From Tubulanus polymorphus (lineage: Eukaryota; Animalia; Nemertea): a DNA stretch of 64,000 nucleotides. How positions within the stretch are numbered: position 1 is the first letter of the stretch; each line of letters begins with the position of its first letter. The stretch is from positions 24,886,560 to 24,950,559 of the forward strand of contig NC_134027.1 of NCBI RefSeq assembly GCF_964204645.1, in the 5' to 3' direction. Below are positions 1,178-49,105 of the stretch, piece by piece. The notes below the pieces were generated by a model. The model did no database searches, was not told the origin of the DNA, and was given only the letters and a program-made list of their open reading frames with translations. The position numbers were made by a program, and so were the translations under genes.

Positions 1178-4100
1178 ATGGCGATGAATAAAAGGAGTCG
1201 GGTAAGCCCATTGTTAATTATCATTCGTAAGCTGTTGACCCGGTCAAGCTAATACAGACCTACCCGCGGCCGGTCCATGTCAGGGATAATACTTAAGACC
1301 AGTCTCACTTGGGGCCAGTTCCATAATTGAGACCTAAGTCTAAAAGTGGTCTTAAAAACCTTAAGGTTGGCCTTAAGCTGTTAGATTAGCTATATATGAA
1401 ACTAAGATGATCTTAAGTCTAAGAGCCACGACTGTGGAACCGGCTGTTTTATGAAAACACTAAAAACTCTACATAACGGTTTCAGCAGTTCTGAGCTATA
1501 TCATTATGAATGTTAGTTCAGGGGCTGGTGCGACTTGGAAAAACCAAGATCCAAACGACGAACAAGCGAAAAAAATACGAACAAAAACAAGAGAAAAACC
1601 AAAACTTCGAAATCGATTAAGGTCAAACGCTTTCAGTGACTGAACCCAGGGCGTCGTTTATCTAAACCAACCGTAATTCCGAACGAAATTTTGATACATT
1701 ACACAATACCGTACTTTCAAGCAGTTCAATGTCTGTCGGTATAGTCTAATTCACCCGCCGAGATAACCTAAGGAAAAACAATTTTGACATTTTGAATAAT
1801 TGGCCTCATTTACTTTCTGATAAAGAAACTGTTGGTCAAATTAGAGCCAATGGACATCTGTGTCGAGCTATATAAACCAGTTTAAGAAGTTCTGCAAAAT
1901 TAAGTTGTTTTCACGATTTTGCTGGTTTTGTTGTTCATCCAGGTTATTGGTATTTCGGTAGTGTTGATATCGGTCTTATTCTATCTAGCTGATCACACTG
2001 TTATCGGTGCGTATTAAACCATGTAAACTGGAATTAACTATATATATATACTAGATTTGACATTTGTCTTCATAGTTCGATATTTTTCGACCTTGTAAGT
2101 AAGGCCCTCGAGTTAACTGTACCCATTCTACCGTGCGCGCGATCCAGATTCATGGATTCAGAAATGTCTTCATTTTTCTTGAAAAAAAAATGGTTTTCAC
2201 GTGTTCGTTCATTTGCTCTGATCATCGCACCGAAACAGCGCATAGAGTCACGAAACAAACATAGGACCTTTTTAAAACCCCTATAGCGGGTGCACCCAGC
2301 ATTAACATTGCAACAATGGTACAATTTAATTCCTTTCTGAGTACATTATTGTGCGGCTTTATTCATTCATTGTTTTTTGTTCTTGTTTTGTGTGCGTGTG
2401 TTTAGGGCAGATATGTATCACAGAGAATACGACATTGACAATGGTAGTAAGACCGGAAGTTCTAAAACTAGGAGGTACCGCAGTTATACAATGCCAGGTT
2501 TTACCGCCACCTAAAACAGGTCGCTGCATATTTAACATGCACTTGTTAAGCCCTTCGGTACTAAGATTTTTTCCTAGAAGTATATGTCATTCATTTGGTG
2601 ACGAAGAACCTCGGTACGTTGAACGATGTGACGTCACAGCCGGCCGTTATGGTATACGTATCACTAACGTAGAAATGGCTGATGCTGGAAGATGGGGTTG
2701 TCATTTCAGGTACTACATGTCCTACCACAATAGTGTACATGTAGATGTAGTGGGTAAGAATACTTAAAACGAATTTCACAATATCCAAAATATATGGAAT
2801 AATCAAAATCATAAGAAACAATCATAAGAAATACTAGAAATCTAATATGATATCAATTAAATATTTCGGGCACTATCGCCGTACTTTTGGATTTAAATAG
2901 GAGCAATTTAACATTTTCACCTCTCATGATTGCGTCTTTTTGATTACATTGATATTCGATATTTAGAGGTGTCATTAGTTTACATATTAAGATTCTCGCC
3001 GATTGTTTGAAGACGCAAATGTTATTTTAAGCGCCCCCGAGTGGACCAGTGCTAACGTCTGAACCAACCACCGCCATCGGTAACATCGTCACATTGCAGG
3101 AGAATTCATCATTAACGATCACATGTAACGGTTCACAGTATGAAGCTACAGGACTGATGTATAAATGGAATGGTGTCAATCTATCAGGAGAGTCTAATAA
3201 TACACTCAACTTCACAAGAATTAGTAAAACTGATTCAGGTGTTTATACATGTAACGTATCGAATATAGTAGATACAGTTACTGGTAGTGTTACTGTCAAT
3301 GTTCTATGTAAGTATAAGTTCCATAGAAAATACATCTCCCTTATCCATATTTGTTGCATACATAATTAAAATGAACAATATTGATCATTGCTTACGTTAG
3401 GTTATCGCTTATTCATCATTCATTTTTAAACTTTTAAAGTTGATTGCGTTATAATTTAAAGTCGAAAGGAGTAAGATGGAATCTTTTCGCTACACGTGTA
3501 TACATTCAATGTTTTTGCAATAGATGCGCCGGTGTTGTCCGAACGAGTCGAACCCGTTGTTGCGCAGATCGGGGAAACTGCCGAATTCACGGTGAAGTTC
3601 GACGTGAATCCGCCGATTGGAACGACTCTCTGCTGCGTTAAGAACGCGACGACGAACGAATCGGTGATAACCTCGAACGAATTGAAAACGATCCCGGTTA
3701 GCAAAACTCAATGGGATGTTGTCGTACAGTCGGTGCAAGCGTCTGATTTCGGAACGTATTTGTGTGAACTCAAGAATGCAATCGGTAGTGTCGAGGTTAC
3801 TCTGCATCTTACAAAGTCTGGTGGTAAGTATAGGGCACAAAATTTATTCTCCGAGAAAGCGATTACATTGAGCTCCACATCGACGTACAACTTTCCACAG
3901 CATCCCGTCGAGCGCCATACCTCTTTAAGATCCAACTTGAGTATTTCGTTCTGAACGGTTTTCTTTTTTAAATTTCACGAAAATTTGAATTGTTCGTATA
4001 CCAGGAAGTGGACGGTGTATATACTATCCACAGTACCGTCCACTTCTGGCTCCAGTATCCACGAAAAAAGTAGAAAAGACCGGGAGAAAAAAAAACGACT

Positions 4101-46600: not shown

Positions 46601-49105
46601 ATCACATGTGACGGTTCACAGTCTGGAGCTACAGGACTGACGTATAAATGGAGTGGTGCCAATCTATTAGGACAATCTAACAATAAACTCAGTTTTACAC
46701 GAATCAGTAAAACTGATTCAGGTGTTTATACATGTAAAGCATCGAATATAGCAGGATCAGTTACTGGTAATATTATTATCAATGTACTATGTAAGTATCA
46801 GCTAATTAGGTAAAAATCTTCATAAGCCTAGTTTAGTTCTAGAACTGTCCGACACACGCGACCCAAGAAACACAGAAGACAAAATTGTGTTTCCAAGCTT
46901 TTTCCAACGCCGCGTGTCGTTTACGAGAATAAGCCGTTTTTGATCCATCCAGTTCGATTCTGTGTTTACATGTGTTATGTACGTTGGTCATTGACCATAA
47001 TGTCATGCGAAATTTTATCTGGGTCCAGTTTCAAACAAGGGCCCACTCTTATACCGACCTATCAACTGCAAAGTTTATGAAATCAAAGAGCCTGGCATGA
47101 GACTAAATAGGAAATAAGGTGCAATTTTCTTTCGAACAGCAAAATATAAAGATATGCATGTATAATATGATTGTTCTTGAAGTGGTGCGCTATATGAAAT
47201 AATAAATCTTTATAATTATTTAAATATACAAGTGATCCAGTGTCTACCCTTTCGTTTGACAAAAGAAAATTCGTATGTAGAACTGAAATTCGAATTTTCA
47301 AAATATGTGCACAAGGCTAGAACTGTGGCGTTCAAAATGATCACGGAAATATGCTTCATAATCGACGTTAATCACCACTAGTTATTCAAACGTAATTTAA
47401 CAACAATATTCCCACATGTATTTCATTCCTCGATTGCAAAAGATGCACCGACGGTCTCCGCGCAAGTCGAATCCGTAGCAGCAAAATTGGGAGAAACCGC
47501 TAAATTCACGATAAACTACGACGCGAATCCATCAGATGGGATAACACTTAGTTGTGTTAAGAATGAAACAAACGGAAAAACATCCTCGTTCAGATTGACT
47601 GATGTTGCTGGTAAACCTCAATTGAGCGCAACTATTCGATCAGTCCAGGCGTCTGACTTCGGAACTCATTCGTGTCGACTCAAAAATTCGATTGGTAGCG
47701 CATTTATAGCCCTGCAAGTTAAAGAAGCTGGTAAGTTAATGAACAATTACGTACATTCATTTACCAGTTAACCATATTTGGCATCTTAATTTGCTTCCAT
47801 CTACAGATGCTACTACCACAGGTTGCGGACTATCGACTCGTGGCCTACTGGGAGGTATCGCGGCCTCACTGGTCGTCATCATCGTTCTCGTTGTTGCTGT
47901 CGTGATTCTATTTCTGAAAATACGCAAGAACAATTCGAAAAGGTAGGACAAAAATTTCATCTCACCAATATATTTCAAGAAATATACGCCCTGTATTATA
48001 TCAACCTTTTCCCGACGTATTTCATTCTGATCTGTTCATTTTTCCAGTTCTGTTGCTATTAAGACAAACATTAGAAGCAAGAGTAAGGCAACGACAAGAG
48101 GTATATTTATATTTATGTTTAAATTTATAACTTACTACCCCCTACCTCCCTACCTCCACTCAGAATAGTGTCAACTCGGAATATAAGACTTATGAATTGA
48201 GAATTTTTGAATAAGTGATTACATGCAAAACTAGGTTCTTGGTTAAATTTGACTTATTAGTTAGATTAATTTTCACTGTTTGAACCACAAATGTCAAATA
48301 GTATCTTTACATGGTATGATACAAAGAACGTGCTGAGAAACCAAGTCACCAGAACATTCCAAGAATCAACGATGATGAAATTTATAATGGATCTATCTTG
48401 TATTTCAAATTAGATTATGTAATAAAGATATTTACAAGGTTTTATATCGATTTTACAATAAAGAGCCATAATGAGGTGCAGTAATCTTACGTTGGATTCG
48501 TCAGTTTTTGCGAACTATGTCTAATTCAAGCAATCAGAGACAGTTCGATATACGATAAAGGTGCGTCATCTTTACTTCCAAGTCGAATATATTCTGTTAA
48601 CTTTTGGGTTTTTCAGCTCGAAAAGATGAAGCCGAAATGTCTACGAGAAAACAGCGGTCTTCCGTTAAAACGAATGAACCTATTTACGGAAATCGCGAGG
48701 TGCGTTATCCGACCCGAACACAAATGTCAGTTTTCGAGTTTAACTAAATCTGGGCTGGATGCTTACTGTGTTTAAAGAAATGCTAGATAAGTCTGTATCT
48801 CTTCTTAGTAAGGCCACACTTATTTTTTCAATCGAATTTTAGGCATCAGAATCTATACGTTTAAGCGTCTTAGTAGATATAACAGATTTTATTATAACTC
48901 TAATGTCATAATTTGTGCGCATCCACAGTTCAGAGATCATCAACGTATCCACAACTTACGCATAAAATACTGTCCTGCATCGTCAAATCTACTGATTTTC
49001 TTTTTCACGATCAATGGACATTTATCTATTATTTTACAGATGGACAACGTCGCCAGAAACGCGTCCGCGTTCAGAGACCTTGGCGAGGAATATGAGGAAA
49101 TCTAG
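43632..49105 (+). CDS. IgSF receptor gene 7 (type C), ~444 aa, 9 exons
   Basis: Exons 43632-43655, 44148-44211, 45939-46283 (V, 2 codons shorter), 46515-46790 (Ig2), 47443-47730 (Ig3), 47807-47942 (TM), 48048-48100, 48617-48699 (NEPIYGNRE), 49040-49105 (..DLGEEYEEI*). Confidence 0.9.
44489..44693. repeat. (AT)n microsatellite, ~200 bp
   Basis: Almost pure AT dinucleotide run in intron 2 of gene 7. Confidence 0.97.

Follow-up and report, generated by a model that had tools for sequence, protein, structure and literature searches.

Tandem cluster of immunoglobulin-superfamily receptor genes with exon-limited V-domain diversity in the nemertean Tubulanus polymorphus: candidates for a recognition receptor system

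The 64-kb stretch of Tubulanus polymorphus DNA analyzed here (the window) carries a head-to-tail cluster of immunoglobulin (Ig)-type receptor genes, comprising six intact genes (A, B1, B2, B3, C1, and C2) and one broken copy (T), which follow one another on the plus strand in the order A, T, B1, B2, C1, B3, C2. A six-frame scan of the window for EEYEEI followed by a stop codon located six such sites, all on the plus strand; gene A was built by reading splice sites, and its exons were then mapped to find the other copies. The cluster extends from position 1178 (the ATG of gene A) to position 49105 (the last base of the C2 stop codon). All six complete genes have GT-AG introns and open frames and end in EEYEEI-stop, with predicted lengths of 451 (A), 350 (B), 446 (C1), and 444 (C2) amino acids. 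The coordinates, the seven head-to-tail copies, their order, and their shared architecture had been proposed in an earlier note on this DNA, and the exon mapping reproduced them exactly. The features are as follows.

1178..6111, plus strand: gene A (signal peptide, V, I, a second I without the B-strand cysteine, transmembrane segment, 81-residue tail; 451 amino acids), nine GT-AG exons at 1178-1201, 1943-2006, 2406-2753, 3032-3307, 3524-3823, 4514-4640, 4734-4780, 5801-5904, 6046-6111
8445..10998, plus strand: copy T, broken, with signal exons, an intact V1 (9524-9871), and a frameshifted V2 (10110-10464)
10479-10534 to ~10998, plus strand: 3' part of copy T, an I-exon remnant (10479-10534) and a third-Ig exon cut at ~10998 and fused to a B-type 3' flank
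12412..17724, plus strand: gene B1 (signal peptide, V, I, transmembrane segment, tail; 350 amino acids; gene model alone), exons 12412-12435, 12675-12738, 14723-15073, 15304-15579, 16440-16575, 16676-16728, 17190-17272, 17659-17724
19614..24952, plus strand: gene B2 (B1 layout with another last exon; 350 amino acids; gene model alone), exons 19614-19637, 19877-19940, 21924-22274, 22531-22806, 23667-23802, 23903-23955, 24417-24499, 24887-24952
28260..33846, plus strand: gene C1 (signal peptide, V, I, I, transmembrane segment, tail; 446 amino acids; C-type body, B-type 3' flank), exons 28260-28283, 28776-28839, 30668-31018, 31250-31525, 32178-32465, 32542-32677, 32783-32835, 33351-33433, 33781-33846
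35734..41062, plus strand: gene B3 (350 amino acids, one residue off B2; gene model alone), exons 35734-35757, 35997-36060, 38034-38384, 38641-38916, 39777-39912, 40013-40065, 40527-40609, 40997-41062
43632..49105, plus strand: gene C2 (C1 layout with a different V; 444 amino acids; original C-type 3' flank; gene model alone), exons 43632-43655, 44148-44211, 45939-46283, 46515-46790, 47443-47730, 47807-47942, 48048-48100, 48617-48699, 49040-49105
9872-9957, 15074-15159, 31019-31104, 46284-46369: in-frame intron extensions after the V exon in T, B, and C copies
30646..30998, plus strand: stretch in which C1 and C2 diverge strongly, nearly coextensive with the V exon
17124..49105, plus strand: recent 16.1-kb tandem duplication ([B2-C1] to [B3-C2]) atop a 7.2-kb B1/B2 duplication

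The window genes are type I membrane proteins of the immunoglobulin superfamily that carry V-set as well as I-set domains. Pfam V-set/I-set matches give three Ig domains in A and C and two in B; the first domain matches V-set at E values of 6e-7 to 3e-3, with two of the five V exons passing the curated cutoff, and the later domains match I-set, Ig_2, or Ig_3 above the Pfam cutoff. An AlphaFold model of C1 (22-row alignment; mean predicted local distance difference test score [pLDDT], 73.7; a five-sequence version with a pLDDT of 36.8 was set aside) has strands A, B, C, C', D, E, F, and G and a transmembrane helix at residues 349 to 376, and the V domain compared with V-set domains in the Atlas gave a TM value of ~0.7. 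Six cysteines are retained in the V domain, where the tryptophan usual in strand C is missing; its B- and F-strand cysteines, C62 and C130 as numbered in P0018, occur in every aligned V domain of the wider family. The V domain of gene A is the most divergent of the cluster (~50% identity to the others). The third Ig exons of A (3524-3823) and C (32178-32465) lack the B-strand cysteine and have a C-strand cysteine instead, as do the long family members described below. The near-invariant signal peptide and the variable Ig number described earlier were both borne out, exon 2 showing 95 to 100% DNA identity over all seven copies. The transmembrane segments, for which different chemistry had been proposed, do differ in sequence between types (72 to 80% DNA identity), but among the window genes and the long members scanned, none has a K, R, D, or E within its 19-residue hydrophobic core.

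Copy T has neither the transmembrane exon nor the tail, and its third-Ig remnant is 86% identical to C1 at the protein level; it is likely a pseudogene and possibly an exon donor. The first 150 intron bases 3' of the V exon are conserved among T, B, and C and run in frame for ~28 residues to a stop, such that retention of this intron would yield a secreted single-V protein. The conserved block also lengthens the homology usable in exon exchange.

The gene A model corresponds letter for letter to XP_074645510.1 ("turtle homolog B-like"), and the C1 model is 100% identical to XP_074646354.1 (uncharacterized LOC141902495); the C1 V exon likewise matched a T. polymorphus RefSeq protein at 100%. 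The annotated RefSeq isoforms include, for C1 (P0001/P0018), a tail 3 residues shorter and, for A (P0033/P0034), a signal-less start. For a transcript check, four public runs, which came as contigs from a single study of two samples at most, were aligned to positions 28000-34200. Spliced contigs of run X4 carried joints at at least five of the eight C1 introns exactly as modeled and a sixth joint with one differing base, and loose ends in this run matched the gene A exon 8-exon 9 join and the A 3' flank, both of which are motifs unique to A in the window. The record of X4 gives no run type; the presence of spliced joints implies RNA. C- and A-type genes are thus transcribed and spliced, contrary to the prospect, raised in the earlier note, that no copy might be transcribed. 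No B-type spliced contigs were among the X4 and other-run matches listed for 28000-34200, and no B or C2 protein was among the database matches to the C1 V exon, blanks that are no evidence of silence. The contig depth of V and I exons was many times the intron depth and was not used as a copy number.

The diversity of the V domain is best seen in the two C genes, which differ at 39 of 345 V-exon sites (11%), 12 of 276 I-exon sites, and 64 of 3972 intron sites (1.6%; Fisher P of 7e-18 for V exon versus introns). Divergence is elevated at synonymous sites of the V exon too (10 of 85 differ; P of 2e-6). Plain positive selection was rejected as the cause, since synonymous sites are equally raised; because nonsynonymous (dN, 0.127) and synonymous (dS, 0.128) divergence are equal at 0.13, the divergence looks instead like exon-limited exchange between copies, which we consider its likely origin. 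At the protein level, the C2 V domain is 77% identical to that of C1, 79% to that of B, and 76% to those of P0006, P0009, and P0013 outside the window. An independent pair, P0005/P0024, is identical at 606 of the last 620 residues and at 82 of 116 V residues, and the P0005 V domain is 87% identical to that of P0011.

Among 13 members, V was less conserved than the next Ig domain (I) in 74 of 78 pairs, and the V and I trees mutually rejected each other (approximately unbiased [AU] test P of 0.0008 and 0.005), although both trees are star-like and the AU tests may overstate the conflict. These comparisons did not include B1, which is nearly the same as B2; P0016 and P0017, whose V models are truncated; or P0014 and P0024. 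The last two did enter the V identity comparison and the face-entropy test. In the latter, the 16 outward GFCC' positions (C, CC', C', F, and G) had a mean entropy of 1.44 bits versus 0.40 for 10 outward B/E/D positions (P of 0.0002; 15 sequences), but the face was set by strand alternation after the entropy list had been seen, and the test was therefore not blind. On the model, variation is concentrated on the predicted GFCC' face.

Self-BLAST of the window aligned 17124-26460 with 33283-42572 (97.0% identity), 27329-29166 with 42695-44541 (98.2%), and 11000-18761 with 18200-25982 (97.9%). The last intron of C1 is 95 to 97% identical to that of C2, but the C1 3' flank is 97.7% identical to that of B1 and 70% to that of C2; C1, with a C body and a B-type 3' flank, fits a crossover product. 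A B1-B2-C haplotype may have misaligned at the shared last exon, and unequal crossing-over would then have given B1-B2-C1-B3-C2; the single residue that separates the B2 and B3 proteins (B1 differs from them at 8 to 9) fits this model. The C-body/B-flank junction lies within a spliced X4 contig with zero differences over 33779-34200, which argues against an assembly jump. Since the shared last exon sits at the crossover point of the array, the sameness of the EEYEEI terminus is partly recent copying, and the invariance claimed for it earlier, which does extend to all six complete genes, has to be read in this light. Run X1 contained long unbranched C-type contigs blending C1 and C2 letters, a weak hint at another haplotype with a different copy number. 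In copy T, the cut third-Ig exon is joined to the B-type flank at a short shared motif. TA microsatellites lie at 29100-29166, 44474-44693, and 59771-59966, the one in the pre-V intron having 34 units in C1 and 110 in C2. Broken reading frames upstream of C1 and C2 (~27318-28094 and 42612-43360), duplicated with the 16-kb unit, resemble what we take to be the decayed end of a long interspersed nuclear element (LINE)-type element.

Database searches and a HMMER scan returned 21 RefSeq models of this family in T. polymorphus, 16 of them with this V domain; the 21 are spread over two chromosomes (19 on a 27.8-Mb sequence and 2 on a 16.5-Mb sequence); as counted from protein databases, this is a lower bound, and some models may be pieces of one gene. 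Most members have C2-type repeats inserted after V-I, plus FN3 domains, with a stalk of 2 to ~10 Ig domains, and several models are fragments. They are labeled nephrin-like, syg-2-like, contactin-5-like, NCAM-like, or uncharacterized; the automatic nephrin-, contactin-5-, NCAM-, and turtle-like labels conceal a single young family. A V profile run against 1.84 billion representatives gave 80 matches, of which the 8 below 1e-30 were all from T. polymorphus; 8 of the 72 weaker ones were looked up and were lachesin-, Kirrel-, or butyrophilin-like or unnamed Ig proteins. Judged by these searches, the window genes are short members of a family restricted to T. polymorphus among the sequences searched, in agreement with the lineage-specific family under birth-and-death evolution that had been proposed, and their distal V domain changes fast. 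Run against the PDB, the V profile found nothing beyond weak matches (antibody light chain, MXRA8, and MOG; E of 3e-4 or worse). In the nemertean Lineus longissimus, XP_064648871.1 ("titin-like"; P0039) is 27% identical over 973 residues and has a C2/I/FN3/transmembrane/multi-tyrosine order in common; it likely belongs to the same ancestral family in another nemertean class, although hhalign gave the V profile a probability of 16% against it, with nothing matched beyond the F-strand motif. The Atlas features of the long member P0006 most resembled the Alr2 cluster (0.96; 205 of 256 features), nephrin (0.95), and VSIG10L (0.94), a likeness of features without alignment, and its Atlas matches include NCAM/nephrin folds. 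Outside the window, P0035 lacks V and has its I domain in duplicate; P0014/P0030 and P0049, which have no transmembrane segment, could be fragments or secreted; and many annotated isoforms of long members leave out entire Ig or FN3 exons or the tyrosine tail.

Each of the five tails scanned in the window, 76 to 81 residues long, has YGN and a terminal YEEI; that of gene A has YEVY, YGN, and C-terminal YEEI, with two tyrosines more than the others. The terminal (L/V)GEEYEEI fits the generic YxxI core alone, and no YDxV/P site was found in the tails scanned. Outside the window, tails fall into two classes: the short tails have YxN and YEE[IV]/YEDV, and the long tails have PIY/PLY repeats and one match to an immunoreceptor tyrosine-based inhibition motif (ITIM); the ITIM-like [ILVS]xYxx[ILV] occurs once in 5 of 11 transmembrane-bearing members there, and one six-residue match could be chance. 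YEE[IV]/YEDV near the C terminus is retained in the short-tailed members outside the window. A PDZ ligand was rejected as the main cause of the conserved terminus, since paralogues carry 2 to 3 residues after YEE[IV]. Phosphorylated YEEI suits Src-family SH2 domains, and phosphorylated YxN suits Grb2.

The reading that we favor, with a probability of roughly one-half, is that these genes encode receptors for nonself recognition derived from a nephrin/SYG-2/Sidestep-like ancestor, in which unequal crossing-over alters copy number and V-exon exchange renews the predicted binding face. Unequal crossing-over in the shared last exon would shift copy number, microhomology deletions would shorten or break copies, and gene conversion or double crossover would swap V exons while stalk, transmembrane segment, and tail are homogenized. 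Outward residues on strands C, C', F, and G would contact a ligand that varies and sits on a microbe, a parasite, or a foreign cell; once the receptors cluster, the tyrosines of YGN and of the terminal YEEI might be phosphorylated by Src-family kinases and so bring in SH2 proteins of the Grb2 and Src types, with the long-tailed paralogues outside the window (one ITIM, repeated PIY/PLY) as possible dampening partners. A like pattern of evolution has been reported for Alr2 (PMC8282982) and FcoR (PMC12582321).

Besides the star-like trees and the unblinded face assignment, several results weigh against this reading. The solved structure that the long members match best is that of SYG-2 (E of ~8e-16, colinear from the end of Ig1 into Ig2), and the folds nearest to the C1 model are IgLON/DIP ectodomains at 17 to 20% identity. 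The V exons of the B copies differ by 0 to 1 nucleotide (0 of 351 in B2/B3), so duplicates do not always diversify; there are four V types rather than six among the intact genes, and the variable V domains of the earlier note hold between types but not among the B copies. Whole-exon V dN/dS is 0.56 to 0.99 and never above 1, and the ratio of nonsynonymous differences on the face to synonymous differences in the exon (pN/pS) is just 1.0 to 1.85, from small counts. A recombination test within V was not significant (P of 0.17; V plus I, 0.025 to 0.05), and no donor exon for the C1/C2 V divergence was identified. Neither an ITIM nor an immunoreceptor tyrosine-based activation motif (ITAM) occurs in any of the five window tails scanned, nor does a canonical hemITAM as defined in PMC12582321. 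An immune or allorecognition role is a candidate role for the cluster, which may instead serve neural adhesion.

Such a neural or tissue adhesion code, in which a nephrin/SYG-2/Sidestep-like expansion uses its distinct V domains to specify the partners of cells in wiring, like Sides/Beats or DIPs/Dprs of flies, is unlikely. It would account for the SYG-2 match, the Atlas score of nephrin, and the likeness of the C1 model to three-Ig IgLON/DIP ectodomains. The long members share V, C2/I repeats, FN3, a transmembrane segment, and tyrosine-rich tails with nephrin, SYG-2, and Sidestep, and P0006, with several Ig domains plus FN3, has a Side-like architecture. As described in PMC10084454, binding through the first Ig domain is the rule in nephrin/Side/DIP-type families, but Kirrels and nephrins have invariant architectures across bilaterians and Sides have five Ig domains plus FNIII. 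Here, in contrast, Ig number varies, copies reach 97 to 99% identity, some of them are broken, the paralogues number at least 21 and evolve fast, the V domain is species-restricted and has no close match even in the relative L. longissimus, and the window genes lack the five Ig domains and FNIII of Sidestep; a wiring code would also be expected to be stable rather than to turn over within a species. One-to-one orthology with nephrin/SYG-2 (nine Ig domains and one FNIII expected) fails on the 2 to 3 Ig domains without FN3 in the window and the 21 variable models, and the orthology with a nephrin, Kirrel, DIP, or lachesin protein that the earlier note had set against its own proposal was likewise not found on architecture, copy number, or V profile. 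IgLON/DIP/lachesin proteins have three Ig domains, a glycosylphosphatidylinositol anchor, and no cytoplasmic tail. Membership in this group fails on the transmembrane segment and the 76- to 81-residue tail, the fold likeness being limited to 17 to 20% identity.

Allorecognition of the Alr1/Alr2 kind, with polymorphic V domains binding matching alleles in trans and the tail reporting the match, seems to us improbable. T. polymorphus is solitary, which counts against it, and B2 and B3, which would be matching B alleles, share identical V exons. Should C1 and C2 stem from two alleles that unequal crossover brought together, those alleles had strongly diverged V exons, as would suit this explanation. 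The Alr2 cluster heads the Atlas list for P0006, but its lead over nephrin is 0.01. According to PMC8282982, Alr2 has single-exon domains, an N-terminal domain that is most variable on the C/C' side, and exon shuffling with neighboring pseudogenes by conversion or unequal crossover; like our cluster, with its adjacent pseudogene, the Alr genes are clustered with pseudogenes and encode a signal peptide, V and I-set domains, a transmembrane segment, and tyrosine tails. However, domain 1 of Alr has neither the B- nor the F-strand cysteine (PMC9546547), whereas the V domain here keeps both invariantly, adds four more, and lacks the core tryptophan; membership in the Hydractinia Alr family therefore fails. 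The window genes also differ in having no Fn3 (P0018 and P0034 checked) and no ITAM/ITIM, Fn3-type domains being present in P0005 and P0006. Alr was not among the named matches of the protein searches or the nine formerly unnamed matches looked up. By analogy, the cluster works evolutionarily like Alr2, yet it is no Alr. Graft rejection with memory is described for a Lineus nemertean in PMC2248247, which concerns xenografts and another genus.

Neutral turnover, in which an unstable array exchanges V exons that drift under relaxed constraint, is similarly doubtful. The equality of dN and dS between the C1 and C2 V exons, the broken copy T, the fragmentary family models, and the lack of B or C2 proteins among database matches agree with it, and since no homologous blocks are as widely shared as the V exons, these offer the easiest conversion targets. 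It sits poorly with six open frames with intact splice sites, with six V cysteines and a B/E/D sheet that are conserved while the opposite sheet varies, with the lesser divergence of the family-wide I exon, and with dN/dS of 0.5 to 0.7 in most pairs, which indicates purifying selection. Hardly credible is a partial assembly artefact placing two haplotypes in tandem, with B3-C2 as alleles of B2-C1: the 97 to 99% identity of the repeat units and the mixed X1 sequence would suit it, but the chimeric C1 junction is present in a spliced X4 contig, and even then the A, T, B, and C types and the wider family would stand, with C1/C2 as highly divergent alleles.

Among other known systems, the vertebrate CD300/TREM/SIRP/NITR/CEACAM families are V-set receptors in tandem whose distal domains evolve fast and whose paralogues undergo conversion. 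The comparison with CD300/TREM/NITR drawn earlier breaks down inside the window, where ITAM, ITIM, canonical hemITAM, and transmembrane charge are all lacking; activating receptors of the CD300/TREM/NITR/SIRP type were rejected for want of a charged core residue, and the tail motifs are alike in all window genes, so the window holds no activating/inhibitory pairs. FcoR of Botryllus (PMC12582321) combines Ig and Sushi domains with a hemITAM ([ED][ED][ED]xYxxL) or ITIM and resembles the cluster as a lineage-specific group of Ig superfamily receptors with YxxI/L/V motifs, intergenic ectodomain-tail recombination, and copy-number variation; membership fails, as the window genes have no Pfam Sushi match and no canonical hemITAM or ITIM, and no cognate partner family like that of FcoR was seen in the window. 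The Biomphalaria glabrata GRC/PTC2 clusters are likewise spiralian, with divergent single-pass proteins, gene gain and loss, and a tie to parasite resistance; the account of them in PMC7494358 mentions no Ig domains, and no relation in sequence was seen.

The literature searched, mostly papers outside subscription, describes no such receptor cluster for nemerteans, and none of the listed T. polymorphus papers concerned Ig receptors as judged by title or the opening of the abstract; the cluster is apparently undescribed. Clusters of diversified Ig-type receptors are known from cnidarians, tunicates, and vertebrates. For nemerteans we know of old reports of graft rejection with memory but of no receptors. 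The locus supplies named candidates, of which A- and C-type genes are expressed, and C1/C2 form a clean natural pair with like stalk and tail and a different tip. Its importance is limited in that such families evolved many times and the role here is a candidate one. A bolder version, quite unlikely to hold, would make the cluster the first spiralian histocompatibility-like complex, Alr-like (convergent or anciently related) on a nephrin-type scaffold, with V exons swapped among genes and pseudogenes to mint self/nonself specificities and short YEEI and long ITIM tails balancing activation and inhibition; if true, this would give graft rejection in nemerteans a molecular handle.

Downstream of the cluster, a gene on the plus strand from 54436 to beyond 60809 encodes an N-terminal membrane anchor and gives weak Peptidase_M13_N matches (neprilysin/endothelin-converting enzyme type; E of 2e-5 and 4e-4); it seems to be an ordinary neighbor unrelated to the cluster.

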